Positions 23,301-38,400 of a DNA stretch of 64,000 bases are shown piece after piece; position 1 is the stretch's first letter; each line of letters starts with the position of its first letter. The position numbers and the translations under genes are program-made. The stretch spans positions 4,575 through 68,574 of the forward strand of contig JBAWWL010000009.1 of NCBI GenBank assembly GCA_037146775.1, read 5' to 3'. The DNA comes from Candidatus Omnitrophota bacterium. GTDB taxonomy: Bacteria > Omnitrophota > Gorgyraeia > Duberdicusellales > 4484-171. A model generated the notes under the pieces. The model saw only the letters and a program-made list of their open reading frames with translations. It was not told the origin of the DNA and searched no databases.

Positions 23301-23456
23301 AAGCTGGGTGGGTGCAGGAAGAAACGAAGCGTAGGTTTTGGGAATAGCCTTATCGATATAACCGGCTAAAGCAGTGATAAAGATCGCTGCTGCCACAAAC
23401 AGAGCCACTGCCTTGAAGGGAATACTGGCGCGTTTTTGGTTAATATAGATTATCAT
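1..23456 (-). CDS. Giant protein 2 (partial; C-terminus lies beyond the window start). More than 7818 codons are in the window. Membrane-anchored, multi-AAA+/vWA/HEAT-like/TPR-like protein with an 8x repeated novel module.
   Basis: The ATG at 23456-23454 (minus) overlaps the TAA of giant gene 1 (TAATG). The first ~385 aa are near-identical to the N-terminus of the 6198-aa ORF (MIIYINQKRASIPFKAV...). My hand translation stays in one frame (codon first positions congruent to 2 mod 3) at 23456, 20360, 14813, 12689, 10418, 8978, 8168, 5060 and 5. The ORF track reports no complete minus-strand ORF longer than 88 aa anywhere in 1..23456, which is expected only if a single frame stays open to the window edge. 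All plus-strand ORFs here are short. Confidence 0.78.
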   Translation of the reverse strand, partial: MIIYINQKRASIPFKAVALFVAAAIFITALAGYIDKAIPKTYASFLPAPTQLLEVSPAFNPLVLKGIKVYPDEPFKFDFILDSGDSTSSQKELKQSSEKLIKHFLASLTIPEEDLWVNLSPYEKERVIPQELGITELGKDLLAEDYILKQLMASITYPESPLGKQFWEKVYKKVYQLYGTTELPINTFNKIWIVPDKAVVYQEDSSAFVVESKLKVMLEEDYLALKNNLNNQEYSTSKIKEDKVKALNKVSSEVLKELILPEIEKEVNQGKNFAPLRQVYNSLILSVWFKKQLKESLVGQIYVNRKKTKGIDTPDKQIKEKIYKQYLSAYRQGVYNYIKDEFDTNTQQNINRRYYSGGCDFTKASSALTITNDPSRVISSNKGKSFNLEVMLDTGSGLEEKVQETIAQVKGPVVSSALTAQGELDTNFDKLSQAQDETERAQVTLALSQILNGHSVVVTTPEQLSIIFSAIKQPNNSKKTIEIIAETIHLVLVNNLGLLSLAFDEIKRDDITDKNRYDFIKAIDLALCDARMIKPTHDHLRSIFAVFQRPDNSKNTHQEIARLLNRTLYNNSSLKLTPIQFGVLVAALKSEERGNDAHNNIALAASRALFNNHELLPSALEELKRNDINDKNRIDAAGIIYLALCDARTLQLTPEQLDILLTAIKRGDNSEDTRGTIAATVSQALVNNSALSIYFLKALANLSNDILYILASALVNVAKALTFDSSQMYSLVRLFMERGFIDQAKKLAKEYLEKNSASDLHSHEIANQQVDWPIILNSIDRALLMQEQYRDGYVAVVVAVDSLEQSFLAVQLKNRIYHTDALARGVRLPATPFGEITRTNLQYYLSHYTLSWEEFKEFMDTYYLGFHQHPEKYTASPADESLRPRGKASSTIEVTQAEWERQFGEADTEIKKIEVINRLKKATLQGSQTAIGAVGELANKLKDIITGQASAGIKEAANLTLAAAASEGSKLAVDALKEIVASQIPETIKQSAVGALAAAAHRGGQVAIDALKDIITSETSEIVKQEAILALNMAAARGRQPAMDAIGELATNLKAIITGQSSESLKQAVIQTLGVAAFMGNQPSVVAVGELATNIKAIITGQFSEALKQSAIQTLGAAAHRGNQPTISAIGELVTNLKEIIFGQASADLKSTVIQALGAGAAGNSQAAANTLKEIITSRVSENIKQSAIYNLGNAVAGGSQAATDVVGELIDILRGIIASQASAQIKKISTQAIKIFLEHSPDFLAKEAAKDQSDWSLILNHIDKSILLQQQYLEDYLAVVTNSDLVTQKLLAVKLKQRVYCDDAKMRGVNPVPEPIEISKIQLPLYLSRYTLSWEEFKQFMDAHYTEFHQHPQKYTESPETESLRPKGKVSSAVEVTQAEWERQFNEADTDAKKIEVIVELIRTASVAENSQSLVAATVIGKVSATLKGMIMSLNLQNSHQNFVETAMQALKIAASRNNQSAVNALKDIAISQNSETINVPAINALRAAVSGGSNFAVDALKEIVTSAIAENTRATAIEGLDAVAYDDGQAAISAIGELTVILKNIITNYGSERIKKAAISALSNAASKGSQAAVTVIEELLETLKGIITSQASEAIKRAATEAIKVFLAYSNFLVKEADKQENDWSIVLSGIDRNLLTQGQYYHDYTAIVYSAVVANADSTEQTLLAVQLKNKIYHADALVRGVSLPVTPFGEITLTNLQHYLSRYTLGWKEFKQFMDTNYADFHQYPERFMMSPAEEKLRPEKASSAVPESTIKTQGASSPTSDDWRITQQVQQLLDAIKTAKDDATHKSSITALRRAMIDNPMLAEKIYSAIGEVGVGIDNDPMRMKLFDAFSDAFRGMASQLSESEADRILDILRQKKLDFRSRREFSKVIGAIASNNYVFFNKLVSGITESSDQNVIVPFAWALQQILENTRSMALTSTQIKDLVATMERVNDLGVLQNIRDVLEKARNTNSSILEETLSALKETSSAGVAHELAFILGRASRGSQKNLSYAKQAIEFLLDRGLARSAIVSIVNPILEADPQWLSPSEVYSWIRSFSNKGFLVEAASIVKEYLNKHPETDFTVGVQKDEFDWPVILNSINRQLLMQEQYRDDYAAVVVNTDPAEQALLAVRLKNRIYYADALARGIVLPAAPFSELTRTNLQQYLSHYTLDWEEFKQFMDANYADFHRHPGKYIESPVEESLRPSKASSALSQTATVSEAIHEQDWSRAVQLAQAAMDNDTAKPEDITIWLTDLVAARQVDAVRSISVAAFDGLFGNLSYRGEWIAIVELLSSEITAILRLKQKELLMEKVRKPQFVDGIYHNLSARFPVAREGLSPTKFRTEFPKLFDPEITRTELTLKHESFLRNYIRRLMGERSKLTTDEAIRIKRLSRELTESIIEARKSHRLQTVGEVSYRESMRFRKIFSRWYLHDMRLAKSRVFDYFAMVAIGIYGRFVPWESRQQFAEVLEGVFRRPAFKDLFLEAGVERGSEVNRYKMLELFDYGRFQMDEQKLGPEAEEVKSVPGLPSYRKLSAAAERARACDMPLFVFVPAGHFTDVVVDALSQEADSAGKPNSEVIPVTISGFSQRNELFGKEQPDANGEMDFVDGAIARAIDFALAHSDKQVYFVLENPNFWSGDVRISLHQMLLERKVMLRRAESVSGRKQVEVNLPDNLQVVLTMERSADIGDESFMDRTAGYYLAELEAKEIQQYLALRVGVTAEVADFLVNNVYAKIKESRVFGDKVNVQDVVQIAYYVRGRMNDNNFTVPLLEVARQEAAMHLAAKFSDLQEAEVINALRSVVGDAPRGSVEISADGKTSVFAGIKVDIDPESRFGKHVAERLATDGRVPAFSEALKAVLPKDYFLTNSEEKVFCLLARVYRYSPSKVIYLQGLPGGGKTTIARVFLDIIGCQQEEYTLNNETELSLFRGSLRINPAAKRGVELREPPYWQNRSIDKVGDIINEIDTRLKVMQWLSPNIMARAYRLGLEYGSTDESNPFNRKDFGQGQITILTGNVRRDAPAILAANIPATYCMERSETDIISITRAMFLARMARMKPAGSSASSPMVLTESMVQSKADTLSAVYNAFSREVLAGNFSSKRLVTPRLSEYFNELMFKAIERGESIDKAFNMLLHIVFVFMWDNPQDMETARNIIKTQVTDLSPPPSPQELLKFIREFPLETPVLVLSNGTVTFKEIRDAVILGTAIKDTIVNLSRFHTKRSLIGGMSRTTEDRAPRNKLGILAWTILRAHLEGNERICWLKGYLNMNPQVTPLFNEFFPSNMLPVDEMFDDNVVNDVMALLGQYHQSYSRIRAEFLEAIKSDRVREKYVGKTSAELPERFEDLSPEQKRMLAKFIISYKPKNLSFRAVGMAEEPIALHPADVDRFFTVNVSHEFNKGWVSQYADGQLASIRESGLRKAALECVQAAWQLHEEQKVNGLYPHNRLGRAEIDLFIKEILSRHQAGTLDETTIKLLGYHILAMGLVEQEEDADQSREHKDYRQAYLAATHLNISQLRYSPNFSLEGGVVYYEIIVQVSGKPVVLVRQATEYSDFKELDKFGRYNFYRADSIIPVRLEAPLQSRLAQQASVMLFGNDNMSVVLEGDPGGGKTSGARDAANAEGKDYYEEGMFRRITLGTALGGLTLRGKEIVLNTLEKDAGRRYILPFLRMYSEGGQYVADEGMVSKGAGQVLRWIVSAASQEEIDLGTYHPGLQGIIVKRDPRFCFIITQNYHFKTGSRKPLPREIDLSVGKIRVDNVLSLEDAVMLINYYLEDAQFDDGLKTEMARLHILLSRSHPQRRMISPRDLIDAVQMVRERGVNADAERLEAIYEAIAVNYLEGLSEVEYEIAEKLVRQVFPDFRMPDFSRMQLVDRGNSDVSQEEVTHLEQSPTLARKVRAMECMLLTGGQATYRGRVLGRKQILLHESPSVGGVEFLKLFSRKTGRKMEVVEGSPFTTAKGLLVGESFAFDADFNDEGERTASIDSFRPAHGPLRRHLVTLEELDSIPPARQVPVLIAITNVESIPKNELVKLNELLQSRTIILKDDAGNLTTFVLPSWVTIVAITSDMRQLTSPFANRLRKIGLPDFNNAQEAHAVLSELYPNLTLEETRFLVEVNQQAAAFCAQRRFEQGYEFSMHDLSEMALRLQMFKQIDHGRGAVHNDPFWYAMKATYYVLFAAMCPEDRKVFLEQALAPILASRLSGLDNNQLIKYCRGLLGEIVQQERGLPREVYPKTLNLEDFSERVYKLANGMKVCLRGDSLNILTDADSYEVSWQELSNNEERKLSDGLSIVRQGDTLTLRLNIICAVGANRFSSNEENKRRAVPLEEMSVDDFMYPADSLLDALNALLQAHTPVVAANGKFIPSRIVLVAGETGSGKTTLARMLPRAEGTPLVRTNPWREMRDSHITVSLAFGQTVKMSVADFLLSCGTVNGKRINTAYPTSNRIRILYDEANVTRDVWYILDAIARGERKFNLITPAGDSVEVVLDKELDIILTYNPPERYGGTGKGSNRYAFPAPFSRKCLKVYTSEPLSRYSKTDITATGYSETETYGIMDGVDRRGEAYFKRQNEARRMSELEQAGKFTQEVPDSGFFAVENEAFPVERVPDITPKPLADLAQEIQQHYPQQPVEKLKRTVSEEERQEAAKQAREQVSFDPADLRARMQEFSLASPALSQQQKYAGLVNRVLIKAFVGMAREAVDSGLLREIVALCASVDSELATIVGELYDYYRQSTTSIQGLAICLGKLESNARKNKVYLENSRDKVLRWRGRPILGFSALPIARMLNMGSERLRHVLGDKYRQVFNDNDNPQVIVVVRPQDGTLGYFNSEGDAVVSFLNNTEKEYEVAAHELGHLVSEKIGPENAALAERLHKNGELLSTLFPLLLVPNPKAYVRDVLVAAIRNRRADDDAYALAARDVLNAFLKAHAKARISTDFEEDNIQVAVRLIDGLSDSEIVKLCMLFLNEPAEYFTDVQRGFYYIQQLSVNMAGATHNFDLSSGKLFFTPNVKVINIGEIDVAETDLSDLPPEKEVVDERQERRERLARVSRRELPASSRKWLERYKKLIAPTDDDYEADYEHVSDGGTDIDPEALAAGDYDRVLIAPQFEDEEKLLAQNIMFVIDASGSITSKPVLQRALEDMIYEYATNLLELSRINPDLNISVAVITTRFTPLFDFKQWKAARSHEAKRQLIVDALDRIWTENIDGGGIDGQALLNGLSDIEFPSAGNKDVKNLVVVATDGDEAQAVSPQVMGEALQEKIKQFQHGKYVTATGKPQIQASSHQQIDFVFAGVALDDGGEKLRKNYPCRINLEEQSIEAYLETLLKIALLQVEGHGLEGDVGHVVSAMDKSKAAASSALSTSQAKASSSPLTTQPDKQNGLQRLLAKGKAIVKGLIAKWKAHREVQIILSAQINKNKVLGTNAESVKLKAIKALYNAAIKDRKPAIDVLKEIITSQVPEGIRRAAIEALENAVLYESQYSVVAIGELVDNLKEIIISQASAGIRLTALRALNVAARYGSQPASNALKEIIITQVSGGIHIQYIAISGLKVAALHDSQPAIVAIEELSNTLKEIVFSQVAPDTKEEAIKALGAAAAKDRQSPINALKEIITSRVSADMRSVAIWQLRDIVRSAPVWHRRADSVIIALKEIINSEVSEYIKQTAIDGLSKTAFSDSQPVAIAAIGELADTLRDIVISQASENMRVSAITALRVVAYYGNQPVIAAIEELADTLRDIVISQASEHIKDAAIWALCFATHRASLPAIIALKQIIASQVSQKIKETARGAIKALLYNNDQEFLTREVARAEADWPIILSGIDGALLIRQQYINDYLLVVADMDSNTQSLLAVRLKQRIYLDDAKTRGVNPLPQPYEISQAQLPLCLSHYTEAWEEFKTFMDANYADFHQHPERFTMSPAEESLRPRGKGKASSAVGITLDEMIGKFFEAKTNPDRIAAINQLITTSSNGDPSGKIRATLKLIVTSQYSDKVKEEVMTRLAAAALGGNQAAIATINELIDIFKEIIKVKTSEGIRNSAIWALRTAAVKGNQIAFDAIEELMVVLGAIMNSSVYEKHIKETAKGAIEIYLAHNPEFLSKEAAKGQSDWPIILNHIERSLFERKEYRDGYIAVVTNSDSEVQKLLAVRLKQRIYCDDAKTRGVQPMPKPREISQTELPRYLSRYTEAWEEFKTFMDANYADFHQHPGKYIESPTEESLRPKKGKASGASSALQQEPPVSQGSWSLRKAIQRGVAAVQSWWRQRKEENAQRTVKNFMSMVKTTIGDKRIQRLSRQAARNPILLEHIVRNINESGNTMHSRQILCSVLSDVLRENHSLPLLQAQFDSLFDTFRNSPAVGLRDSLDGVLGSSARFHPEQLERLLVGAEEAEDPLVRESFINALYTALGGEDHLVPFSQGQMNRLLVFVSQPGQSQSFSRSLSLLVFAVLRKNRSLKLSHTQVLSLVEALKQTQDDKTREKYAEALIEALINDRSLASKDLHLDEIIEALSRAKDLAPEYILILLGQIAANNPQVYSRVQEVFQRMATPVYIHHLRQMLPCDSSEPHELKFWMRMLIHWGEPQAAINMASRYLHDSSGNLHSSDVERAEADWPIILDGIDWQLLKDRAYLEEYINVVVGVDSLEQSFLAVQLKNRIYHADARARKVPGLPAQPFSDITRRNLNQYLSRYTLSWEEFKTFMDTHYQEFHQHPETYNESPAEENLRPRGKGKASSALGETYQELIAKLAIEKEPTTQYRLADALATACQQTDWIEITTPQGLDGIFTILNQSQDDATMKLLASALRHIAKKASSRTKFNLEQAGFLAAAIAKANDYFLLSDLAVALGSVARGNPELLSIASAAAEKLFERKLFNKAFDIVQAFAEIGDFSDSVLVYSWMFRFVEKGEASMAKEIGQTYLRSSAFRTAYFEAQAALAQNDWPIILGSINWSLVLRKGTARTYPYKETLFLEGVYHEDYLNIILEKDNDRKNLLAVRIKQRIYLDDAKKRGVHLLPQPREISQTELPRYLSRYTLSWEEFKTFMDANYVDFHQHPEKYTESPAEESLRSGKASSALSFSDRGQAVLDNVQARAQIAEKITLSAFALVTMGGDGYNGNASHELVELADMYAELGNLQKAQDLLELAKGRISGYNEAPIRARISEVYAKLAKSQEAEEMLLSAIEKSEEPYSDPAIIARAAITINRIEKVQQAIQSAGSRRLKENKGHYLAYFAISLAEQNKTDEALAILRGIDSAKDIYSYRDLLVYLVTSGKISADQGIALAQKISKDYDRTDTLIKIAEGLAEKDTEAVLKIVKLLKNDYDQEKVLKLIARQIVARNRPDEITRMQANEIILISLSEAYADQNKMQEALGSAGRIMRTDLRLSTLLYIAKKLALSGDKAQAGRILDRDVLSNIGSSLKYKRSEVFALIAELEILLGRNTQAKQYVDAAIREAESSHVDEDFCILVANILSQLGLWNETFQFINQLKDETRGKALDAIARLAVAANKVEGYQDYSNRGWTPNNTGGSQGRAIAHMALARELAKGGRFDEAVQEARQVSYRDMYSQAYLVVAQVVAAEFRRTNEARVITELNDGMLQGRVIQLISQEMINAGALDRLLNLTRSVGRSEVDGYRAQAFVHIAETLVQVGRREEANLLLQEALTNIRGLDSLSCNSMIRAFRLFAALNPATVLESLQQAQVQLEAFNKKLLQACQPLEEYRGLHVTANLVKSGLTVAQMQDEQFFVPLVQFVRQSGGYLDFNLKYLGDLTVQNAKQTVESWVRVMTEYENPLCVPVMLDGQDANGSMEKIWHYLNGRPAHVTARDAYSWMRLFISLGAANAARDIAKKYIEEYQSKGGKAKL
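2350..2770 (-). repeat. Module copy 8. Translated by hand: LLPQPREISQTELPRYLSRYTLSWEEF.
   Basis: ataatcggccagtcgttctgtgcgag (LAQNDWPIIL) near 2751; ttcttcccaagataaggtgtagcgggaaagataacgcggaagttcagt at 2461-2510. Confidence 0.75.
3365..3740 (-). repeat. Module copy 7.
   Basis: gataatcggccagtcggcttcggccc (AEADWPIIL) near 3721; ttcttcccaagataaggtgtagcgggaaagatat at 3481-3515. Confidence 0.7.
4865..5240 (-). repeat. Module copy 6. Translated by hand: ...MPKPREISQTELPRYLSRYTEAWEEFKTFMDANYADFHQHPGKYIESPTEESLRPKKGKASGASSA.
   Basis: Reverse-complement translation from 5060 downward, in frame with the 23456 start. gataatcggccagtcagattgg near 5221. Confidence 0.8.
5745..6120 (-). repeat. Module copy 5.
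   Basis: aataatcggccagtcggcttc near 6101; ttcttcccaagcctcggtgtagtgggaaagacat at 5866-5900; tail gcactagacgcttttcctttacctcttggcctcaagc at 5746-5785. Confidence 0.7.
6200..7300 (-). repeat. Third HEAT-like repeat array in giant gene 2. It contains exact 50-nt nucleotide repeats 120 nt apart.
   Basis: gaagcctgggaaataacaatatctcttaaggtatcagcaagctc occurs at 6311-6360 and again at 6431-6480. Confidence 0.7.
7600..8170 (-). other. vWA domain with a MIDAS motif (NIMFVIDASGSITSKP ... VVVATDGDEAQ) in giant gene 2, C-terminal to the AAA+ region.
   Basis: Reverse complement of 8141-8180: tta gca caa aat atc atg ttt gtg ata gat gcc agc ggc agt att acg. The codon starting at 8168 is in frame with the ORF. 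Confidence 0.6.
8964..8978 (-). other. HExxH zinc-metallopeptidase motif in giant gene 2 (KEYEVAAHELGHLVSEKIGP).
   Basis: Reverse complement of 8941-8999, in frame with the giant gene 2 ORF. Confidence 0.55.
9900..15600 (-). other. Multi-AAA+ ATPase region of giant gene 2, with at least three canonical Walker A P-loops about 2.1 kb apart. The arrangement is midasin/dynein/MoxR-like.
   Basis: In-frame reverse-complement translations: QGLPGGGKTTIARVF (GGA at 14813), VVLEGDPGGGKTSGARDAA (GGC at 12689), VLVAGETGSGKTTLARML (10418-10380), followed by Walker-B-like RIRILYDEANV (~10150-10200). Confidence 0.65.
16870..17240 (-). repeat. Module copy 4.
   Basis: accggccagtcgaattc (DEFDWPVIL) near 17221; ttcttcccaatctaaagtatagtgactaagatattgctgcaagttagt at 16981-17030. 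Confidence 0.65.
18205..18590 (-). repeat. Module copy 3.
   Basis: aatcgaccaatc (DWS) near 18571; ctttccaacccaaggtatagcgactaagataatgctgcaggttggt at 18311-18360. Confidence 0.65.
18620..19250 (-). repeat. Second HEAT-like 42-aa repeat array in giant gene 2.
   Basis: The same nucleotide periodicity and the AIxALxxAAxxG / LKxIITSQ pattern read on the reverse complement. Confidence 0.5.
19340..19710 (-). repeat. Module copy 2.
   Basis: ataagcgaccagtcggattgg (DQSDWSLIL) near 19691; ttcttcccaagataaggtatagcggctgagatac at 19441-19475; GK-rich tail at 19341-19370. Confidence 0.7.
19780..20700 (-). repeat. Array of 42-aa (126-nt) HEAT/ARM-like alpha-solenoid repeats in giant gene 2.
   Basis: 126-nt period, for example ctggccagtg at 20151 and again at 20277. 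Hand translation: ...AIGELATNLKAIITGQSSESLKQAVIQTLGVAAFMGNQPSVVAVGELATNIKAIITGQFSEALKQSAIQTLGAAAHRGNQP.... Confidence 0.7.
20781..21160 (-). repeat. Module copy 1 of a novel ~130-aa repeated domain in giant gene 2 (DWPIIL ... YLSRYTLSWEEFKxFMD ... HQHPEKY ... RPxGKASSA).
   Basis: Plus-strand landmarks: cggccagtc (DWP) near 21135; ttcttcccaagataaggtgtagtggctaagata (LSHYTLSWEEF) at 20881-20915; Lys/Gly/Ser-rich tail at 20781-20815. Confidence 0.7.
22278..23456 (-). repeat. Copy B of a ~1.18 kb near-identical direct repeat. It is the 5' coding end of giant gene 2 and matches the 5' end of giant gene 1.
   Basis: Pairwise reading of 22278-23456 against 40869-42052. The outer ~100 nt are diverged. 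From ~22385/40976 to the start codons the copies are almost identical, with scattered SNPs (for example atccaggataaagtc versus atctaagataaagtc). Similarity stops exactly at the start codons. Confidence 0.9.
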
Positions 23457-26400
23457 TATTTATAAAGATTAGATTCAAATCTATCTTCTTTTTTTCTTGC
23501 TATATATTTTTCGTGAGAAACCAAAGCTAAATCAACTTTATCCGATTGCGTTTGAGCTTCATCCCGGTTAACTGGATAAGTCTTGAGAATACTGCTTAAA
23601 TTATGTATGGCTTTTATATTTATGATTCGGAAACTAAAACCTTCGAATTTCTTAATATCAAAAGGAATATTGAAACGGCCGAATTTTACACTAGAACCTT
23701 TAACTTCTAATTCAAGATACTTAGGATTAAAATCGATACCACCCGGTTTCGATTCAGAAGAGTTGACCCTGAGCAGAGTCGAAGGATCTATGCCACCAGT
23801 TTTATTATCTTTCGTAGTCTCTTCACCAACATCTCCTCCAATAGTTTGCGTTGCGACAGAACGTAAATTTTGCAAAACTTCCTGCGACGGACTATTTTTG
23901 TCAAAAATAAAACCCCGGCCACTATCTAAAGCATAAACAAAGTCTACACCTTTGGAACTTTTCCTATCTAATTTTGATGGTCCCTCAGGATACTTTGAAC
24001 CTTTAAAATGCGAATGGTATGGCATACTTATTAACCCAGGCTTACCTCTTGCAACACTTTCAAAACTTAAAATTTCCTGATCTACTAAATTTATTCCATA
24101 TCTTTGCATTAATATTTGGCCCCTTTCTCCACCGGGGAAGAATGTACCGATACCACTCGTATTTACCTGCTCTATATCTGAATCGTCTTTATCATAATTA
24201 TCAATCCGCGGGCTCATTACTATCGATCCCACAGGAATAAAATCAACTATTTCAATAATATCTCCTTGGCTACGCGCAATAAAATAACCTTTTCTTTCAA
24301 AATCCGGGGAACGCCCTGACCAAGCAACCATTTTCTCCCATGCCTTTAGCGGAAAATTATATGTCTTGCCTTGATAATCTTGTGCGTAATAGCCTTGGCT
24401 GGAAGATTGCCACTTTTGATGAAAATCTAGCGCTTCTGCAGGCGTCACAATGCGTGTCCATTCAGTTTCTCGAGAAATAGGTTGCGATAGCCTTAAATCA
24501 AAGATTTTTGCTACTGGATCATTTTCTATATTTAGCGCTGAACTTACTTTTTCCTCATGAAAAGCTTCTTTTGCCGGTTCCATAAGCGACAGCACACTTG
24601 AAGCTTGCGTTCCCTTGTCACCTACAGTGTTATGCTCCGCTGGTTTTTTAACGGCTGATTCTTTTGGGGTTATAACGGCGAGAGTCTTAAATCCCTGGAT
24701 AGTTTCATCAATAACTTTGCCGATAAATATCTGATAACGCACAATATTTTGAATGACCGTTGTCCCAGTGGTAGCTCCAGCTAAATCAATATCTTTCTCA
24801 TGAGCAAGGGATACATCTACCATTAATGGTTTCGGCACAACGTTGGTATCGTATACCTCAACCTTGCTGCATTTTCCAGAATCATTTAATTCTATTGATA
24901 AACCAATTGGTAACGACAAATTAAAATGGTTACCCCAGAAGAAAGCATTTTTAAGCATTTCGCGCAATGGATGACGGATATCCCGGCCAAAAATGTTTCC
25001 AGACGGACGCAACCACGGCAATTCATGAACAAAATTTTCAATTCGTGCTTTTACTTTCTTAAACCATGTTCTTTTTATTTCCTTATTCGCGCTGTTTAAA
25101 TCTGGCGCATCCGCTGTCTTTAAATTAAGTACTACTACTCGACCATCCCTAAAAGCTTCTATAACTTTTTCTGCAGCATCTTGAGCAAAGAACGAAACCT
25201 CAACTGTTTCACGGTTAAAAATAGGCGAAGATACAATACTTTTATCTGTTAGGGAAGTTTTCTCTGATATTACTGAACTACTTACCGTTTCTAGTTTCTC
25301 TGGTGGCAAGATATCGCCTGGAATTGCTCTAAGATCTTCAAAATTCCATCCTGGCTGAGTAAAACTATTATAAAAAACTCTTGGGCCAAATCGAACAACT
25401 CTATAAACAGCATAAGTAGGTTGTCGACTAAAATTGCCGGTAGAAACCGGAACTACCATCATTCCGCTACCTTGGCTAAGACGATTGAATAAGCTTTTAG
25501 AAATACCTCCGGGTAAACTTCCATCAACTATAATTCTGTCGAATTTTATCCCATCGATACCGTCTAGCTCGCTAAAAGCATCTCCACGGATAAATTCAAC
25601 GTTCTGATACTTTGGTGAAATTAGTGCTTGCCGATCTCTAGATATTGCAGGGTCTATCTCCACGGTGTATATCTTGCCGTTGCCACTGTTTTTCCCGCCA
25701 TTAAGTAAGTCTGCCAAGACTGCCACCATCCAGCCTGAACCAGTACCAACATGTAATATCTTCTCATCGCCTTTAAGATTGAGTAAAGAAGCTACAAAAC
25801 CAAGATACGGCCCTGACGGCAAAGCTCTTTCGCGATAACCTGCTGGTAGTCTTAAACTATAAGCGTCTTGTATATCAGGCATATCAATAAAGTCTGCCCG
25901 TGGATTAGCTTGCATCGCTCTTAATATTGATTGAATTTGCTCTAGCCTAACTTTTTTACTACTTAAAAAATCTTCTACGTTTTTATAAAATATGTCTTGA
26001 GAAGATGTTGCGGTGACCGCACTTGATGCAGATTGAGAAATGTCGTTCGATTTTTTAGATAACTCTACTTGCGCCAGCGGCGACGATACCGCAGATTCTG
26101 TGGTTTCTGCCATCTGCCTAAAATCCTGAATCGTTTCTGAGTAAGTCTCTTCGTGCCGGCCAATCCATTCCTCCGGCTTAAATTGCTCAACATGTTGCGT
26201 GGCTCTCCTGCCCCAGGCTAATCTGTCTTGAGGAGCTAAACTCATAAATCGTGATAACCCATCTTTTAGAGCATCAGCACGCTGCTCAAAATCAGCATAC
26301 CAAGGAACCAAAAGTCCGCTTTCGCGATCAACTATTGACTCTCTTACTCCAGGAATATCTGAACCAATAACCGGAACACCCATGCTCGCCGCCTCCAGCG

Positions 26401-29400
26401 GAACAAGAGCAAACCCTTCCCGCCTACTATAAAGCAAAACTCCATTGGCTCTGCCGTATAAAAAGCGCAGCATTTCCTGAGGAACAGCTCCGGCTACATA
26501 AGCAATACCAGTTAAATCTCTACGCCTTATTTCCTGCTCAATATCATGTATTCGTTGTTCTGAACCTAAACCGACAAAAAGAACCTTAACTCCGCTTAAA
26601 AATTCTTTCTTCGATCTAAAATGTTCAAACTGTAAACCCTCTAATGCATCAAGAATCTCTGGTAAACCTTTTCTACTATCTAAAGAGTTCGGCACGAGTA
26701 TGAATACATCGTCATCTCGCATAAAATACTGCTCGCGCAAATACCTAGAAACCGCCTCGCGTTCAAGATCAGTCAAAGAATTAAAGTTATTATCTTCAAA
26801 TAAAGGCCCTATCCAGTCCACTCTTGCGTTAGGAAATCTCTGGCGGATATCTTCCGGCGAAGCTGGATTAACGGTTAAAATACGCACCAAAGGATTATTC
26901 ACCAGTTTTTCGAATATGTAGGGTTGAAGATATTTTTCAGCGGCATCCCAAACCTCACTGGAATTAAAACCAGTAGCATTGTGTAAATAAGCTAAAAATG
27001 GAAGATTCCTTTTGGTAACAATATCAGAAACTCCATAATGATATTCCTGTAAATGTGAAACCACTAACTCTACATTGCTGTCTTGCGCAACATAGGCACT
27101 TATTTTATTCTCAAGATCATCTAATTCGTGGCCTTCTTCTATTGCAAAAGGAATAAACAATATTTTGCTGGTACCAATTTCTAAAGTTTTTGTTTCCTGG
27201 GTCTTATTGCTGTCCGGATAAAATACCACTTGCGTCAGCCCGGGATTACGCGCAGCAAGCATACCGATAAGCTTAATCGCATAGCGGCTGATACCGTCTG
27301 CTTTTAAATCCGGCGCTAACTGAATAATGGTGCGGTTAGCCAAAAGCGAATTTTCTATTGGCGTAGGCGTCAGAGAAAATTGTTCAAGATATGTTTTCGT
27401 ACCGCTAGTTGGCCTGCTTTGTAAAGATTTTAAATGCGCAACTAACTCTGCGATGCGCGCTTCCTTAACTTGCCCATCATTGCCCAATAATGTTCCTGCA
27501 GTGCCAACGCTAAAATCTTTGTCTAGTCCAGGTGTCTGTGACAAAGAAGAATCCACGGCTGATGACGCTACAAAGCTGGGAGCTTTTTTTGACTGAGGAG
27601 TTTCCTCTAATTTCGCTGAATTATCAGTAAGCGCTGAGGATGCAAAACCAGGAGAGACGACCACCTCTATCCTTCCCAATCCTTGTCCACGCAACAATTC
27701 TTTTAATTCCTCCTTACGAGCTCCATCAGAAATCACTAAACGCCTTGCGTATTCTAATGGAATTTCTCCAATAATAATACGCTGGTCCCTAAACTCACTC
27801 TGAGGAATGTCGAATTCAAAGTACGCTTCTCTACCATAGTAACCCTGGACCGCCTGTTCACTCTCAAATACCCATATACAGTAATTGCGTAATACATCAT
27901 CAATATTTAACATGCCATATGTTTCCATACGTGTAAGAGAAGCGTCTCCCAAAAGGTGTCTTGCCCTAGGATCGGTATTAGCCTCTATAGAAGTTTTATT
28001 GAGCAAAATATAATTTCGTAAATCAAAATTGCTTTGCTCTAACGTAATCAGATCCGCTGGCCTCATACTACGTAAAATACCTTCATAGAAAAAAACCATA
28101 AGCTTTCGGATACCTGAATCTTGACTATCTATCAAATCAACGCGCTTAAGCGACATTATTGCTTTTTGCCGAATAATACTTTTAACCTTATCGATTGCAT
28201 CGCCCCCCACGCGGCTGGCACCACGAACACCATGATATACTCTTGCACGCTCTGTACTCACATTCATTGGCATCCCGCGCTCATTGAAAGATAAAGAATT
28301 TTCCTCAAGCGGCGAAGACGCAAAGTCATGGCCGGATTCATTAGCGAGAGAACGACGAAACGCATCGTCGACCCCGTAGAGTCTTACCTCAAAATCAGTA
28401 GATTCTAATCTTGTGCGCTGGGAAATCACCTCTTTTGCGCTCTTAATTAATGCTTCAATTAAACTTTCGCCATCGCGGTCTAAAACAAATTCTTCATTTT
28501 TTGAAAAATCTTTGAAAACATTTCTTGCGGCCTCATAAAGACATGCCGTTAATTGCTCACTTAGTTCTTCGGCTTTTTTACTTTTTGGGACAATATCTGT
28601 TTGCTTAACCAACCTCATAAGCTTTAACACGATAGGCAAAAGCCTGGATATCTGCCCCGGATTTATACCCGCGGCAAACATTCTTAATGCCTGTTGGTGT
28701 TCATAAGGCGCATCCCGTTCTGGTATCGTTAATAATTCCACCGCAATCCGTATCGCCAAATCCCAGCTATCTGCAAATAAAGTTTTCATGGGCGACTCAT
28801 CGCCTTGTACCAGGAATCGTTTAACCACCTGTTCATAACCATCCGACCAATTTTCATACAGTTTCATTAAAGCATGTAATAATACCCGTTCATTACGATA
28901 CACATTACGGATTTTCCCGGCAGCAGCCGCAACTTTTGCCTCAGCTGTTCCGTATATGGCACTGTTCAGCATGGCTTCCGCCAAATCTTCGCTTACTTGC
29001 TCAGCGCCTACACCAAGTATTTCCCTTAGCTCTTTATTCCTTAAAGCAATTCTTAGCATAACATCTCTAGCCAACTCTTCAGTTACTGCCTCTAGGAGCA
29101 AATGATAGAAAGCCCATAGCTGACGGCTTTTAGCAAAAACGGTCAACACTCCTTCAGTAAAATTGGTATGAATTATTTCATGGATAATCAGTTTTGTGAT
29201 ATTTGGTACTCCCACAATCCGATCATTCACCAGGATAACATCTATGTGGGCGTTGCCGTCGCTCAGGCGTATATTCATGCCTGACTCTCTCCTCAAGCCA
29301 AGTAATTTCGTAAGCCATGAGTTCTGCGGTATAAACAAAACTCCTTCTTCATTAAAAACACGCTGCAAGCTTTCGTTCTGAGCCGCTTCTGCTTTTATTG

Positions 29401-32400
29401 CGTGCAAAGCAAACACCTGGTCATCGCGCGGTAATTGTGCGGCGGGAATATTTTTTCCGGTTATTTTCGCACCTCCCTCAACCATAGAGAGAGCTCTCAC
29501 AAATACACCAAGCCTGTCGGGAGAACTATCTTCTGCCATTAAGGCTTTCAATGTTGAAATTCTAGCTCGAGCACGATCAAGCTCCTCTCTAGACTGCTGT
29601 TCGGCTGAGACGGATGACGTTTCTTTTCCAGAAACAGGCTTACCGGTACTACTCGGCAAAAACTTTCTTACCATTGCCGCGATATCTAAGCCTGTCTCTT
29701 GTTTAAACTGATCGTTTCTTACGACTCTCTCTGCGTTTTCTTCATAAACACGAAGATATTCATCCATTATCTGGTATATATTCACTACTGCCGCAATATC
29801 TCTGCTGGGCTGGGCTAATGGCGAAGAAGCTATCGCAGAATCTTCTTTTGGCGATGAAACTAAACTATCCTTTATTTGAAGAGAAGATGAGGCTGTGGCT
29901 GGCTGGGTTTCTTGTCCTACTTGTAGTGTCGGATAACGATAAGAATATGTATTAGCCTGACGGATATCGCGTAGTAATGCGATAGGGGCAAAAGCATCAC
30001 GAACAGCCTGAACATTAAACCCAGCGCTTTCTTGTCTCTGGGTAAACTCTGCTTCTGCCATCATTGCGGCAGTATGAGCATGAATGCGGGTGTTGCCGGT
30101 TCTTAAAGCATAACACTCTGTAAATTCGTGGATAAGTATGTGGGAAACAAGAACGTTTTGTTCTTCCCTACTTAAGGGTGGTGCCTGGTTAAAATGCGCC
30201 TTGATACGGCCCAGTGAAACACGCTGATCTCCAGTGAGATTAGGAATAGTAGAGAAGAGTTTATTAATATAATTCTCCCGCTCACTACGAGTACCATGAT
30301 TCAGAACAAAGAGCATCTCGCTAAAAGCTTGAGTGTTAACCAAAAGCATAGCGCCGTTATCGGCAGGACGAACAAGGCCATTAATCGTTCTTGGGCCTAC
30401 AGGTTTGACGGTAATTGTAGTACCAGCGATACCAATAGTTTGTTCACTCAAGTCAAAAGTAGTGCTGCCTAAAATGCTAAAAGCTATAGGGTTTACTCCA
30501 TTAGTTTCCTTAAGTATGGTATCAGCAGGTGAGGCTAATACTTCCATATCACCAGTTGATACCTGGCCCGGCTGGCCGGTAAGGCCGACATTAACCGGCA
30601 ATTGTCTGTAAGACTCATCCGCAGCTGTTCTTTTTTCAAACGGGTCTTGAACACCCGCTTCAATAAGACGCCAACGTGGACAAAAAATATTTGCCACCTG
30701 ATGGATAAAGACATCCGAGCGACGCATGGCTCGCATTGCCTGACCAATGGTAAAAGGCTGACCCGCACTATGATAGCGCTCTATACTCCGCAATGATCCG
30801 CCAACGGCCTGCTTATTTTTATGAGCAATCGCAAGTGTAGTAATATCGACAGATACGCCCAAATTATGCAAAGTACGATTGAGATTGTCAACAAAATCAT
30901 GGGCATAACACGCATCAAACACAATATTTACATTATTCAAATTGCCACGTTCAATAAGCCAGACAGCTAATTCTTCAACCGATATGATCTGCGACGGTGA
31001 CAGCGCAAATCCTTCTCGATTTGCGTGACCGGAAAAAGTTATGGTTAAGGGCCCTTTATGTGTAATTATGGCATCTTTGACATCAGTAATGACGTCTGCC
31101 GTGGCGGGCACAGTGCTTCCTCCGACATATGAATGAATCTGTCCACTGCTCATATCACTTGAGGTCTGTAACGCTTCATAGCGGGTTTGTTCCGCACGCA
31201 TCTCTTCATGAAAAATGTTTACTGCCGTGCGTCTGGAAGAATATAGCTCATTTTGCGACTGCCGGTCATCCGGCAAGGTTTCTTGTACTACCCTACGACC
31301 TGCGATGATAAAATCAAACGCTTGTACGATTTCAGCTTCGGATGCTTCTTCGGGAATAATGCCCGAGGCTCTCAGATGATAATATACCGCAAGACCTACT
31401 TCATAACGCTCTTCATCTTCCATATGACTAGTACGCGTCTTAAAGCCCTGGCTCTGGTAAACAATGTGGTGGATAAAGGTATGACCGTAAAAACGGAAAG
31501 GCAGTTGCAGAAGCAACTCAGCCAAGCTATCCGTTTTAATCATTTGCCTATTATAATTTCTTATCGCGGTTAAAGCCGCTACTGCTGTTGCATAGTCGTC
31601 GTTTGCAAGATCGTCTCTTTTCATAATGCCCTCAAGCGTTGCAACTGTTGCGGGCTCTGCCCAATCGGGATGTTGAGAAAACAACACGTTATATACACCG
31701 GCAATTTCTCCAAAAAATGCTGCCGGTCTTTGCCTAGATGCTGCTGCATGTTCAAGAGCTTGTCTACGCGTCGGTGATGCAAACAGTCCTGAACGCTTCC
31801 GAGCAAATTCCTGCGCCGCGACCGCGGCCGCCACCACAACAGGCACCACAGTAAAGTCTCCTTCAATATTTAGAACACGCAAAATTTCATCAATGCACTC
31901 ATCTGCATATTGCCCAGTATATTGATTACCACCGATGGCAGCCAAAGCTCTCATAGCATCACCGTTTTTTTCTGAATGCAGTTTAACCGCATCAACTGTC
32001 GACCGCGCAATCAAATCTGAACGTTCCTGCGAAAGATCAACAATAGCTCTCAACGAATATGAGTGAGTGGTTATACCTCTATCGCTTGCATTCAAATTGC
32101 GCTCAAAAGCCTCAATTGTGGAAGCGCGTGCTCTATCCGATTTTTTTCTCACAATCCTTAATAATGCATTTGTCGCTATAGAATAACTATGGGCTTCAAG
32201 CCTATTTTCATTTAAAACTCTTTCGAAGGTGTCAAAACACATATCAATAAGGTTGGTATTATTTGAATAAATAGCTATTTCAGTTAAAGTCCTAGCAACC
32301 TGGGAATAAACCTGGGAGGCAATTTCTTCGCTATCATAACTAGTACGATCTAGCGCAGCCGTATTTAAAGCATCGAGCAAAACCTTTGTTGCTTTGCGGG

Positions 32401-35400
32401 AAACTACGCTTTCAACGCCTGAAGTCACAATAACAGACAACGTTTCGCAAACAAAACTGATGGCTTGCGGAGTAACATTGGGCTTTCGAAGTATTACCTC
32501 AAGAATTCCAACTGTACCTTCGTTAATAAGTCCTGGTTTATTTCTAGCAATATTCTTAAGATCGCTGACCCCATCTATATAGCCGTCCTGTAAAAGATTT
32601 TCAATTGCTTGCAGCGCTTCTTGAGCCCTAGCGCCATCTTCTCTGATAGCAATTGTGGCTAACTGATATGTACTTTTCTCTCTACGCAGCTCTTCTATAG
32701 ATTTCGATGGGATTTCTTGATTAAGCGGTGAAGAAACCGCAGAAGAAACTCTTACTTCACCAATCTTTCTTTCTAATCCTGCTAATTCTTGAGATATCTG
32801 GTTAATCTCTCTTCGTAAAATTTCCTCTTTTAGCCCAGGATCTTCGCCTTTAGTTAAATCGGCCTGTAATATTTCTAATCGTTCACTTAACCTCTGCCGG
32901 TCACGGGCAAGTATTGTCCTTATTGTTTCAGGAAATGCCGCGGGAGCCAGCATTTCTTCTGTAATACGTATATATTTACCTTCGCCAAGCCACCAAATCT
33001 TTTCTGCGGGAAGATTTTCTGAATAGCTACTTATCACTACGCGGCCGGCTAAACTTCTGCCAAGAAATTGTTTTATCTGCGCCTGCTCCTGGTTATTAAA
33101 AGAACGCGTATAGATAACTGCAACCTTTTTAACTCCTAATTCACTAAGCGGCTGGGTGTATCTCGTGAGGCTGGCTGTTTCCATCTCTACAAGAGGCAAG
33201 CGTGAAACTACATATCCAAAAAGATATTGACCGTCAGCCCAAATCTCCACATACGACCAGTTTTCGGTTGGTGAGTCAGTGTATTCTATTTTTGCAGCTG
33301 GTATTTGCGCTTGCGGATAACCCAATAACCATCCTTGCTGACTATCAATAAACGCCTTTTTGATGGTTGTGATAATATCTCCGTCTTGCACACGGTAAAC
33401 TTCCGGATGGTTTGAAATTTCTGTCTTAATAGCCTGTGGGTTATAAAATAATAATTTTTGGCTAGCATGGCCATCAGATTCTTGTAGCGTAACTTCTATT
33501 TCTTGAACATTTCCTCCAGGCAAATGCGCAAGCAGCTGTCTAGCTTGCTGCGCATTCGCGGGACTAGAGTCATCAAGCAAATATGACGGCTTTGCTCCAA
33601 GTGCAACTAAAGTAATGGGTAAAGTGAGTGGATTATTTCTATTATCAGCAACAAACTTTTTCATTCCTTGAGAGGCAATCGCTGACGAAGCAGTGCTCTT
33701 CACTGTAATATCTTCAGCCTGTTTTGCTGCCGGCGATGATGCTGAACCATCAGGACCAACTACTAATTTTTTTAACTCATCAAGCTGCGAATATTTACCT
33801 TCGGGAATAATCGGCCGGCCCTGCCAAAAATTAATTCTTCTTTCTTCACCAACACCAAAAACATGTCTACCAAATCTCCCCAAACCTATATCAGCGCAAT
33901 AAAAAGATATAGCCAATTCAAATAATTGTCCTTTAGGTATACCTAAAGAAACTACTCCAGCAGTTAGCAAACCATCTGCTTCTGCCGGCGAGATAGCTTT
34001 TGAGATTGTTCTACCAACAATATCTTCGCCAACAAGATAACAAATAAGATTAATTTCAAATTCTGAAAACTGGGAACTTAAAGTTTCTCTGATATATCTT
34101 ACCGAAGCCTGTTCGTGCTCTGAGTGACTACGAATAAGCGCTTTACCGATATCATGCAGCAAAGCTGCTATTACCATCAGCCGTTTTATCGGTATAGCGG
34201 CACCACTGCTATCCCGTAAAGACATCGCATCGATTGTCCTATCTTCATAAACACTATTCATCGTATACAAAGTATGATCTAATAAATTTCCTCCGCCCCT
34301 GGGAGTAGCTATAGGCGCTAGTTGCGGAGCTACTTGCACAAGAAGCTGCATCACTCTCGTGTCACCATCAAGAAGAATACGCCTACTTAATTCATCTTTA
34401 TACTCCTGGGATAAGCCAGAATTATTTATTGCTGCAATGGCTTGCTGTTCAGGCTTGACTGTTTCTTGCGCATTTGCCACAGCTAATTCTGCCGCAGAAG
34501 GAGATACTTGACCAAAATCTTCTAATTTCACCGTACTCACATCGTGTTCGCTATATACATAAGTTGTTGGATCACGGTCAAGATATCCTACTTCGGCTTT
34601 TAAATAATCAAAAAGAGTTATTTTTCTTCCAATCCAAGGATGAGCCATCATTTTTATAGGAGTCGCATTGTAAGCAGTTGCTTTTACAACTTCCCTGTCA
34701 ACCAATACCTCTGCCAATAAGCCTTGCAATAATCCTTGATTATCCTGTCCTGGTTGATAATCAGCTTCGAGACGCGCCTGGAACCTATCTAAAAACTGCG
34801 CATCCAGATAACCAAATAGAGTTTGGAAATATGCAGGCCGCAAGCCGCAGATACCGCCTTCATCATTAGGCCTTAAGTTATTAACTTCTCTTTCTAAAGC
34901 TGCTCGCGCTTGAGCGATTGCCGATTTTGACAGTCTGCCCTGGGCTATCCATTGAAGAATTTTATAAATATTCTGTTTTGCACGTTTCTCGGCTAACTCC
35001 CATACCATGACCTTTTGAACACTATTGGCGATAGTATCCTGGTCTATGCGTTGTGTCCTTTTTCTCGCGCACTCAGGAAGGGGGACAGCATTATCTCTAT
35101 TCGCGCGATCTGCTTCGGGACTGTTAACATAACAAAAAGCTAAGGTCACGGCTGTATCAACCGCTCTATATTTATGGCCAATCAATTCTAAAAATAACAA
35201 ATCAAACTCATGAAAGGCTTTTGCTCCATGAGAATCTTTTATTTCCCCACCTCTAAGTGCGTAATGTACGATTGCCGTGGATAAAGCGTGAGTCACATAA
35301 TTAGCCTCTGCATTATCATGTTCGGAACTTCCTCTGAAAACATTGTTCATATTGTCAAAAATTACTGGCACAATCAGCCGTTGCCCTCTATGCGCATATA

Positions 35401-38400
35401 GTCTGAATCCGCCTTGAGCATTGAGCAGGGCCATCGTGCCTGCCTCACTAGTAACTACTCCAGCGTCTAGTAAAGTATTGTGCAATTCTGTGAATGTACA
35501 TGTAGGAAGGGTGATCTTCTGCGCTATGGGAGTCATCTCTGCTAAGACCCCTCTCTCTCCGGCAAAAGACTGCGCCATATCGCTTGTTTGAGAAATAATA
35601 TTGTTTTGTTTATTCCATAAAAATGCTTCTAGTATTTGGTCGGGAGATACCTCGCCACGCGCTACAAGCTGACGCAGCTCTTCGTACGCTCCACGCATAA
35701 GCAGGCAACGAGCATGTAAAATGGGCGATTCCCCTAAATACGGCGCGAGCATTCCATCATTTATGTCTTCGGCCATACGCCAATATCCTTCGACAGCATA
35801 TTCATCATCGAGAAAAACCATTAACAAGCTCCAGGAAGATCCGTATGCGGCTTTTTTAATCAATTTTTCCACTAAAGCATCATATCCGGGAAAACAAAGT
35901 AAATTATCCAGTCTAGTAAAAAACGCGTCTAACCCTTGCGGTCCGGCAACACGCAATATTTCCTTAAATGCCCCTATCGCATACTCTCTATCAATTTGTA
36001 ACAACATAGTAAATGATCCTGCGATCTGGCGTAAAAATCTCTCAATATCAATTCTTTGATTACTAGGCACCTCTTCGTTCCTACGCACTAGTAATTCAAC
36101 CAATTCATTATCAAATGCTACACGCGCCATAGCAAGGTTTCCGCCTGCAATCTCATGAATTACCATACGCTCATTAAAAAGGTTGTCACGAGAAGCGGAA
36201 TATTTAACAGCCTGGACCACAGTATGTAATTGCTCTCGAGTTAAACTTAAGTTCTCATGCGCCTCCAGGAATCTTGGCACAAGATATGCCAATCGTCTAC
36301 ACACTGGATTACCGCTAGTATCCCTTATAGCATTAACAACAAAAGGAAGCTGTGCGGGATTATCATGAAGTGCTCTACCTATAGCTGTGAGAAGCGGATC
36401 GTAGTCATCCCGGGATGGCTCTCGAGTTTTTCTGGCATTTACTAAAAGTGGTATAAGCGTAAGATCTCCCGCGGGTGCATCTTCAAGCACGCCTGCTAAA
36501 TCATGATCATACGACAATCCTTTTTCACCGCATAATACTGTGAGCAAACCTGGGTTATGAGAAAAAGCTTTTTGCAATACCCTAACTAGGGCTTCTCTGC
36601 GTTCTCTTTGATGGACAGTTGTTTCATTAAGCATATCAACAAACACTTGAGTATCAGCTAAAGTAAATGCCTGAGGAGAACGTGAAATCAAATCTTCTAA
36701 GGCTGCTACTAGAAAATTAAATGTCTCCCCTGTTCGGACTTCATTAATTGCAAAAACTAAAGGCCCTGTTTCATCCATAAGCAGCGTAACATCATAGTTA
36801 TTATTCCTGATCGCTCCTAGAGCACCAGAAAGAACGGATTGCCTTACTTTGTCATCTTGCGTTCGATGGGCAGCTTTAAGCAAATACACAATTTGTGCTG
36901 CGCTTGGTTTTATACGAGTGTTATGCACCAAGCTAAGATTTAAGACATCCGCATAGGCTGCTTCCGTCGGACTAGAAACCGTGCCTTGGACTGTTTGATC
37001 ATGCACGGCTCTAAATTTTTCAAACACTAGATCAAATAATTCCGGGTTATGTGCGATAGCGCGGCTATAAGCATGAGAAAGATCAATTCCTCTGGTAATA
37101 GCTTTGTCAAAAGCTTGTGTTTGTTCCGAAGTAATCGTAATGTGCGACCTGTCAAATCCCTTGATAAATATAAATTCTAAAAAACTAATAAATTGTTTAT
37201 TACTACCATCGCGTAGATTATCAAGCGCATTTAATACTTCCGACAGCAACTCATGGTTTCTCGCTAAGGCCTCTCCGATAACTTCCCATGCAAGCTTATA
37301 TCCCAAATCCCGGTCCTTTATTGTTTCTAAAACCTTCATTGTTCCTGATAAAACATCTGGATTATTTACAAGAGCATACTGCAAAACATGAAAATATAAA
37401 TCTCTATGCGCTGCTTCTACGTTTCCGTCACAAAGAGGTTTAATCACTAAAGTTTCAGCTTCTTGTGCGGAAAGCTTAACCTCTCTACTATTTGAAAGGG
37501 CATTATTTACGGCTGCCAATAATCGTAGCTGCACATCCGTTCGCGATTCACTCGCTAAAGCAGAAATTAAGCGTGTGGTGAGATTGGGATATCTTGAAAC
37601 GTGTACTCCTAAACGCCTCGAAGATAACGACTCACCAGCCACAACACCCTCCATGTACATATCAAAAAATCGATTAATGCTCTCATCCTGGTTAGCGTCA
37701 GTCGTAACCGCCGACGACACTACTGATTTAGTTTCCCCTTCTTTACGCTCTGCATCTTGCGCCTTGCGCTGCCCTACATACGCTGCAACTGCATCTATCT
37801 TTTGTTGGCCCGAAGGATGCGTGTTTGTCGCGGTTTCTGATAAAGGAAATGCTTTCTGTAACTCGTTAACAGCAGCTACTGGCGCATTCCAACCGTAAAT
37901 TGACACAACAATGTCTGTGGCAACTCTATCTACCTGCAACTCGATTTCGGGAGTACTTGGCCCATAAAAACGGTGTCCCACTTCATGAGCGATAAGAAAA
38001 GTAAGGGCCTGATCACTTAAAGCACGTACGGCCTCTGGAGTAACAAGCACAATCCAAAGCCGTTCATTTCCAACATACTCAGCGCTCTCCGGCAACCGGG
38101 GTAAAGAAACTTTTATTCCGTCTCCAAGCTCAATGGTTACACTCTTTACATGCTCTTCAAGTGCACCAGGAGAAGTCGATATATAATCGGTATCAATTCC
38201 AATTGCATGTGGCAACGGTGAAAAATGCAATCTTTCGGCTGCCTGAGTAACAGCCTGGAATCTTCCCTCAAGTCTACGATGCCACTCAGCAAACTGCTCA
38301 CGGGATATATATGTGTAAGCCGCTGCGTATCTTTCGCTAAAATATTCTTCGAGACGTTCTGAAACTGTTGACCTAGTCTGCAAACTCTCTCGCACCTCCG

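Follow-up and report, generated by a model that had tools for sequence, protein, structure and literature searches.

The 'Archaeovorin' giants of Omnitrophota, for which TIM, FBPase, PGM and PPDK domains are listed, have loci resembling the type II secretion system near their genes and are defined as proteins of >30,000 aa with numerous transmembrane (TM) helices and a SecA-DEAD domain (West-Roberts et al. 2023, 10.1101/2023.11.21.568195). A 'multi-enzyme metabolic cluster' class, with PF00534 in 127 proteins together with methyltransferase and HD modules, has also been described, and 8.6% of giants were classed as signal-peptide-only (Nielsen & Lui 2026, 10.64898/2026.06.07.730766). The present analysis concerns a 64,000 nt stretch, referred to as the window, from Candidatus Omnitrophota bacterium [GenBank assembly GCA_037146775.1, contig JBAWWL010000009.1, positions 4,575 to 68,574]. 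The window includes an uninterrupted open reading frame (ORF) of 6198 codons on the minus strand, named giant 1. On balance, giant 1 is judged to be a real, Sec-exported, modular multi-enzyme protein belonging to an Omnitrophota-specific family, and it would act as an exported, self-processing protein or effector.

The catalogued giants are from the same phylum as giant 1 and, as in giant 1, a single chain combines the enzyme domains glycosyltransferase group 1, methyltransferase, HD and peptidase with HEAT and TPR. Relatives of giant 1 share with Archaeovorins the TIM, PPDK, PGM, FBPase and hexokinase domains, and their family resembles the published giants in its extreme sequence divergence with conserved architecture. 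However, at 6198 aa giant 1 is below the cut-offs of 10,000 and 30,000 aa used for the catalogues, and it has one hydrophobic segment where the catalogued giants have tens to hundreds of TM helices. Neither a SecA-DEAD nor a C39 domain was detected in a Pfam scan. By size, TM content and SecA, giant 1 falls outside the Archaeovorins, but by Omnitrophota origin and its mix of glycosyltransferase, methyltransferase and peptidase it falls among them, and a smaller relative of the published Archaeovorin and multi-enzyme giants, with a single hydrophobic segment, is a slightly favoured description. Multi-enzyme Omnitrophota giants are already published, but the bracketing modules and two peptidase families described below apparently are not; the conserved N- and C-terminal modules, a C13/legumain/caspase module and the zincin of Module B are mentioned in neither West-Roberts 2023 nor Nielsen & Lui 2026. 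No relevant literature linking Omnitrophota with polymorphic toxins was found.

The main features of giant 1, in order from the N-terminus, are as follows.

23456..42052, minus strand: giant 1 ORF, 6198 aa.
41921..42052, minus strand: predicted Sec signal peptide or signal anchor, aa 1-44 (hydrophobic segment aa 16-34).
40973..41920, minus strand: conserved, family-defining N-module, aa ~45-360, ending in an invariant Y-x-S-G-G.
33953..34285, minus strand: HD(IG) phosphohydrolase/nuclease-superfamily domain, aa ~2590-2700, with H2593 ... H2632-D2633 (Pfam HD).
30623..31678, minus strand: Module A, predicted clan CD cysteine peptidase, C13 (legumain/GPI8)-like, aa ~3459-3810, H3676/C3715 (conservation and profile).
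28415..29608, minus strand: Module B, predicted gluzincin-like metallopeptidase of an unmodelled family, aa ~4149-4546 (conservation and AlphaFold2 model).
26165..26749, minus strand: family 4 glycosyltransferase (GT4), C-terminal (donor-binding) Rossmann half, aa ~5102-5296 (Pfam, NCBIfam and PDB).
25433..25981, minus strand: PIMT-like methyltransferase dependent on S-adenosylmethionine (SAM), aa ~5358-5540, motif I ILHVGTGSGW (Pfam PCMT, NCBIfam and PDB).
23582..23749, minus strand: conserved C-terminal module (C-module), aa 6102-6157, GGIDFNPKYLELEVKG...FEGFSFRIINIKAIHNLSSIL (C-module hidden Markov model, HMM).

The original prediction, made from the letters of the sequence, had picked out seven catalytic-looking signatures, and all seven quoted motif strings are present once each in giant 1 where they had been placed: HEVGH at aa 1356 (nt 37987), LLHDIGK at 2631 (34162), the pair FSGHA at 3673 (31036) and FDACYA at 3712 (30919), HEIIH at 4291 (29182), a GT4 motif at 5211 (26422), ILHVGTGSGW at 5432 (25759) and HSHFKGSKYPEGPSKLD at 6013 (24016). 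Chance expectation was estimated from 2000 shuffles of the giant 1 protein. HExxH occurs twice against a shuffle mean of 0.14 (at least one in 13% of shuffles), a relaxed JAMM pattern once against 0.03 (in 3%), HD[IV]G once against 0.05, and the dyad pattern GH..[AS]C once against 0.09 (in 8.5%). Short motifs alone are therefore only mildly improbable, so each needed a check against profiles, conservation or fold. What decides is whether the residues are conserved in homologues and whether a profile or fold matches, and such evidence was obtained for five of the seven. The proposal that giant 1 is a multi-enzyme polypeptide and not purely a structural adhesin is backed by its GT4, PIMT-like, HD, clan CD cysteine peptidase and second HExxH zincin regions.

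When 1.84 billion representatives were searched exhaustively by HMMER with aa 3450-4649 as query, 58 relatives were recovered, which split into two modules, A and B. In alignments of 25-39 Module A sequences, which are ~22-34% identical to giant 1, the only invariant columns are His3676 (38 of 38 ungapped sequences) and Cys3715 (39 of 39), and a hydrophobic beta-strand precedes each of the catalytic His-(Gly) and (Ala/Ser)-Cys. A profile of the module detects GPI8/PIGK of the GPI transamidase in PDB (E 3e-4 and 2e-3) and, at E 0.02-0.9, legumains, and it aligns the invariant His and Cys with catalytic H164 and C206 of human PIGK. Pfam Peptidase_C13 is matched individually by 9 of 25 relatives (best 1.6e-5), and others match C11, C25, C80 or C14, all of which are clan CD; the C80 matches, in 2 of 25, are only traces. 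The giant 1 sequence by itself reached no Pfam threshold in this module. The C13 peptidases legumain and GPI8/PIGK share with Module A the order hydrophobic strand-His-Gly ... hydrophobic strand-(Ala/Ser)-Cys and a spacing of ~38 residues. They differ in that identity is very low, the comparison being one of sequences, and in that Module A is part of a giant bacterial polyprotein and has GHA in place of GHG. Module A is thus predicted to be a clan CD cysteine peptidase that is closer to C13 than to caspases proper, so that the 'caspase-like' label holds at the level of the clan but not of the family.

Module B includes the HEIIH motif that had been read as a second zincin. H4291, E4292, H4295, E4321 and E4325 are invariant in 20-21 sequences, and an AlphaFold2 model, in its own numbering, places helices at 88-102 and 116-144, fitting an HExxH helix followed by a helix carrying the Glu that supplies the third ligand. 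The model predicts a zincin fold with confidence, which bears out the zincin reading. Named metallopeptidase families (M1, M48, M78 and others) gave no PDB match at E<=10 and only Pfam traces of 0.01-0.1 from single members. Module B is therefore predicted to be a gluzincin-like metallopeptidase of an unmodelled family; the gluzincins with which it was compared are the thermolysin-like catalytic domain of M1 aminopeptidases, LTA4H, ArdC and MATCAP.

The glycosyltransferase region matches Glycos_transf_1 (PF00534, 8.1e-19) and Glyco_trans_1_4 (PF13692, 2e-15), as well as many NCBIfam GT4 families and the PDB structures of GlgA, WbaZ, TreT and BshA, and its EX7E motif (E5212-x7-E5220) is intact, in agreement with the original GT4 assignment. 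The adjacent methyltransferase was also correctly recognised as PIMT-like. It matches Pfam PCMT (PF01135, 2.5e-12), PDB PIMTs (3.5e-9 over ~165 residues) and an NCBIfam model (2.1e-17), but in the last case with 63.4 bits against an equivalog cutoff of 188, and it is predicted to be PIMT-like and not a PIMT equivalog. The HD segment, when searched alone, scores 25.0 bits with Pfam HD (cutoff 22, E 2.4e-5), which upholds the predicted HD hydrolase. The same residues are matched by PADLOC Cas10 and Cas3 HD models (3.7e-5 and 1.5e-4) and weakly by NCBIfam cas3_HD, GlnD and HDIG models, and a phmmer search of this region against PDB gave nothing meaningful.

The MARTX toxins and the large clostridial toxins TcdA and TcdB are very large exported proteins in which a clan CD autoprocessing peptidase is combined with cofactor-dependent enzymes. 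As a functional analogy, giant 1 also pairs a predicted clan CD peptidase with a glycosyltransferase that would be workable only in the cytoplasm of a target cell. However, its peptidase is C13-like and not C80, its glycosyltransferase is a GT-B enzyme of GT4 and not the GT-A type of the toxins, and neither RTX repeats nor a translocation domain was detected. An alternative, following the model put forward for Archaeovorins, is that giant 1 remains on the Omnitrophota surface as a machine for degradation or adhesion, its peptidases and glycan enzymes attacking the prey envelope from outside with neither self-processing nor injection. The signal peptide, three peptidase-type domains, the published model for Omnitrophota giants and a T2SSE/PilT-type ATPase encoded nearby (50422-51672) are consistent with this. 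However, Pfam and NCBIfam scans of giant 1 found no glycoside hydrolase, lytic transglycosylase, lectin, dockerin or adhesin repeat, and a GT4 enzyme and a SAM-dependent methyltransferase would have no cofactor supply outside a cell, leaving this alternative rather unlikely.

Giant 1 belongs to a family with a common layout, consisting of a Sec signal peptide, the conserved N-module, hypervariable cargo and the conserved C-terminal module of ~60 aa. It has a signal peptide, an N-module ending in YxSGG and a C-module <80 aa from its C-terminus. These family-defining end modules, the Omnitrophota origin and the papers on such giants were not part of the original prediction. At least 1201 database proteins have the N-module; almost none of them is named, and those with a label are from Omnitrophota. 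It was also found in at least 436 metagenomic stretches, and the ORFs behind it have ~430 to >3700 aa. No Pfam model covers it, its predicted fold has no match in PDB, and model confidence collapses past the invariant Y-x-S-G-G. Proteins carrying Module A or B start with the N-module in 10 of 58 cases, and none of these 58 other proteins has both modules. Across the family, the cargo includes HD, Zeta-toxin kinase, HAD, methyltransferase, phosphoesterase and protein kinase domains, and that of larger members includes PPDK, TIM, hexokinase, PGM/PMM, FBPase and GAPDH as well as HATPase, ABC1, HEAT, Ank and TPR.

The C-module has the pattern GGIDL...GF.PVIINI.P..NL..LLG and is covered by no Pfam model. 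An HMM built with giant 1 left out matches giant 1 at aa 6102-6157 with E 1.2e-10. It also detects 95 local sequences (L081-L159 and P-proteins), where the end of the match is always <=78 aa from the C-terminus, and of 71 complete family ORFs, 58 have GG[IVL]D in their final 110 aa. The C-module may be a sorting or anchoring signal. Gly-Gly motifs, at the end of the N-module (Y-x-S-G-G) and in the C-module (GGID), bracket the cargo.

A second giant gene follows giant 1, and the two share a long repeat.

3..23456, minus strand: giant 2 ORF, at least 7818 aa and continuing past the window edge, with the same signal peptide and N-module as giant 1 followed by unrelated cargo.
22250-23456 and 40846-42052, minus strand: 1.2 kb direct repeat (nucleotide comparison of giant 1 and giant 2).

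The giant 2 ATG overlaps the giant 1 stop by one base (TAATG, window 23454-23458), suggesting that the genes may be co-transcribed and possibly translationally coupled. HEAT, AAA/P-loop, VWA and TPR domains make up the recognised cargo of giant 2. The 5'-ends of the two genes are 97.4% identical over 1206 nt, with 100-nt windows from nt 300 to nt 1000 scoring 100%, and the repeat has abrupt limits, the ATG on one side and nt ~1200 on the other. At the protein level, giant 2 matches giant 1 with 92.6% identity in its first ~433 residues and is unrelated to it beyond them. The pattern indicates that the N-module alone underwent gene conversion or was recently duplicated, and, as the homogenised 1.2 kb is common to both giants, it suggests that the N-module may also serve as a recombination handle for cargo swapping. 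Co-oriented tandem arrays of N-module genes are present in 14 loci, and three pairs within loci are 85-95% identical in the N-module. In the polymorphic toxin exoproteins of the TpsA-CdiA type, a conserved N-terminal secretion domain precedes variable C-terminal cargo. The N-module family is functionally analogous in having a signal peptide and a conserved N-terminal domain of ~300 aa with varied length and content, tandem arrays, and recombination or gene conversion that does not extend beyond the conserved 5' region. Giant 1 does not qualify as a TpsA of two-partner secretion, for which an N-terminal TPS beta-helix domain and an adjacent TpsB are required, and tests for membership failed for the MARTX, large clostridial toxin and TpsA/CdiA families alike.

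The direct repeat could also delete giant 1 or confuse assemblers. It thus bears on a further explanation, in which giant 1 is an assembly artefact arising from the near-identical 1.2 kb copies or the motifs are chance occurrences in a long, mostly structural or disordered protein. The shuffle frequencies of HExxH and the relaxed JAMM pattern fit the latter, as does the ~60% of giant 1 that has no detectable homologue or family. Against this, 20-39 divergent relatives keep the catalytic residues without exception, Pfam, NCBIfam and PDB give significant matches, and the zincin-fold model is confident. In addition, 14 independent loci carry tandem N-module genes, and an open frame of 18.6 kb is not explicable by chance. 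This explanation is considered highly improbable.

For giant 1 as an exported protein, the N-terminal signal would carry the chain across the inner membrane, and the head and tail modules would serve onward targeting or anchoring. The resident peptidases might then cut the polyprotein into separate enzymes, or might cut host surface proteins. The GT4 enzyme, which requires a nucleoside diphosphate sugar, and the methyltransferase, which requires SAM, would act where their cofactors exist. Because of this need the site should be a cytoplasm and not the periplasm, most plausibly in or on the host or prey cell that supports these episymbionts. The 'polytoxin' and self-processing ideas of the original prediction are plausible proposals, and they are compatible with a predicted Sec signal peptide and with cargo that varies between conserved head and tail modules.

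The N-terminus of giant 1 has a basic n-region followed by a hydrophobic segment at aa 16-34, the sole Kyte-Doolittle hydrophobic segment of the protein, with candidate cleavage sites at ALA|G (aa 30-33) and TYA|S (aa 42-44). Family members have canonical Sec signal peptides with signal-peptidase sites of the form ...(Y/F)-A|Q. Several observations weigh against the preferred explanation of giant 1 as a whole. The giant 1 signal is less canonical than the family consensus, with a hydrophobic core of 19 residues, and could be a signal anchor. The modelled N-module fold matches no solved structure, and no conserved transporter or partner gene adjoins N-module genes. In Module A of giant 1, Ala follows the catalytic His (aa 3677, GHA), a position at which Gly (GHG) is found in 37 of 39 relatives. 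Of the GT-B fold, only the C-terminal half was detected: the Pfam, NCBIfam and PDB matches are all confined to aa ~5102-5296, and none covers an N-terminal acceptor-binding Rossmann half. Export, processing and host delivery are each deduced from sequence, and GT4, the SAM-dependent methyltransferase and the glycolytic enzymes of relatives are of cytoplasmic type, so that the body could equally stay in the cytoplasm of the producer.

The main rival accordingly is a membrane-tethered scaffold on the cytoplasmic face, where the anchor is uncleaved and a body of ~6100 aa targets proteins or envelope precursors of its own cell through glycosylation, isoaspartate repair and proteolysis. Cofactor logic favours it, since the GT4 and PIMT-like domains need cytosolic cofactors. 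Glycolytic enzymes in relatives and the long hydrophobic core are further points for it, and Nielsen & Lui place 46% of larger giants in a TM-only class with cytoplasmic bulk (10.64898/2026.06.07.730766). Against this, the positive charges K8, R9 and K15 precede the hydrophobic segment and predict an N-in/C-out orientation, the signal peptides of family members are of a canonical, cleavable ...A-x-A|Q type, and with one hydrophobic segment nothing returns the chain to the cytoplasm. Such a scaffold is a minority possibility, and Sec export is retained as the preferred reading.

Four smaller regions of giant 1 were also evaluated.

37835..38050, minus strand: HEVGH site, aa 1335-1406, possible M48/M56-like zincin (sub-threshold matches).
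34472..35824, minus strand: conserved module of ~450 aa, aa 2077-2527 (34% identity to one metagenomic relative, L081).
29951..30223, minus strand: small conserved block ILIHEFTECYAL...AHTAAMMAE, aa 3944-4034 (common to L027, P0142 and P0164).
23948..24310, minus strand: JAB/MPN-like pattern E5919...H6013-x-H6015-x10-S6026-x2-D6029 (unsupported as a JAB domain).

The HEVGH site had been called the first zincin. The top or only matches on the motif are indeed metalloprotease models, but all fall short of threshold (Pfam M48 with 16.3 bits where 20.3 are needed, E 0.0089; a peptidase model of PADLOC with E 0.0012; a metallo-protease of PHROGs with E 0.0025), and no homologues were found by a word-index search with aa 1100-1700, nor anything meaningful by phmmer against PDB. 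The context IVLVTPEAVRALSDQALTFLIAHEVGH resembles that of M48/M56 zincins, and an M48-like zincin is plausible here, at perhaps a little better than an even chance. The JAB/MPN call did not hold up. An upstream ERKGYFIA accompanies the HxHx10SxxD, but the spacing of 10 departs from the 7 residues of the canonical JAMM pattern HxHx7Sx2D, which is absent, and the region found no match in Pfam, PADLOC or PHROGs (E<=10), in NCBIfam (E<=0.1) or in PDB. The JAB reading is unsupported by these searches, though not disproved. The reading of the motifs as chance occurrences is largely refuted for five of them; it stays viable for the JAB-like site and less so for HEVGH. The module at aa 2077-2527 is shared with a single metagenomic N-module protein (L081:12710-13993) and has no family or PDB match. 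The block at aa 3944-4034, considered as an HExxH, is HExxE-like instead and has no family match.

Word-index searches with aa 1100-1700 and aa 3474-4400 gave no matches, because the body of giant 1 is too divergent for that index. A contig scan of 185,579 species genomes with aa 2400-3900 found no relative, and phmmer of aa 1-5000 against PDB gave nothing meaningful; a match to a designed repeat protein was a low-complexity artefact.

The genes upstream of the giants are a chromosomal housekeeping set, encoding RuvB, ScpA, TrpRS, IF-2, NusA, RimP, ProRS, a T2SSE/PilT-type ATPase, IspG, RseP, Dxr, CdsA, UppS, OmpA, TadA, a GGDEF-HD protein, a permease and CheB. RuvB of the window is up to 81% identical to proteins of Omnitrophota metagenome-assembled genomes (MAGs), and essentially all of the 80 best ruvB loci are Omnitrophota; an N-module gene lies downstream of ruvB in 2 of these 80 (MAGs L027 and L031). 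The secretion ATPase gene (window 50422-51672, minus strand) stands alone amid housekeeping genes ~8 kb upstream of the giants, and the CheB response regulator is at 62530-63540. A 257-aa ORF at 13888-14661 on the plus strand, opposite to giant 2, is most likely a shadow ORF inside the giant gene. Scans for promoters, terminators, tRNAs and Rfam families around giant 1 were uninformative. No conserved neighbour (transporter, immunity or partner gene) of N-module genes was found, the best cluster occurring in 9 of 79 loci. Among the neighbours (L081-L159), fusions of CheB-CheR-PAS-histidine kinase recur in 8 loci and tyrosine integrases in 7, more than any others, and further clusters are TPR, an epimerase and PFK.

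Omnitrophota giants, huge enzyme-laden proteins of host-dependent nanobacteria, are a recognised puzzle, and giant 1, at 6 kAA and with one hydrophobic segment, is an experimentally tractable case. More tentatively, the family of at least 1201 proteins, seen only in Omnitrophota, might represent a previously unrecognised polymorphic effector-delivery system of these episymbionts. Its cytoplasm-type enzymes would be exported as polyproteins, bracketed by head and tail modules with Gly-Gly motifs, and freed by C13-like (possibly transamidase-type) and gluzincin peptidase modules to act in or on the host, with the N-module shuffling cargo between tandem genes. The handles gained are an exported head module, a C-terminal tail module, evidence of cargo swapping behind a homogenised 5' region, and two recurrent peptidase modules with catalytic residues H3676/C3715 and H4291/E4292/H4295/E4321. 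These make it directly testable whether Omnitrophota giants are processed polyproteins delivered to hosts.

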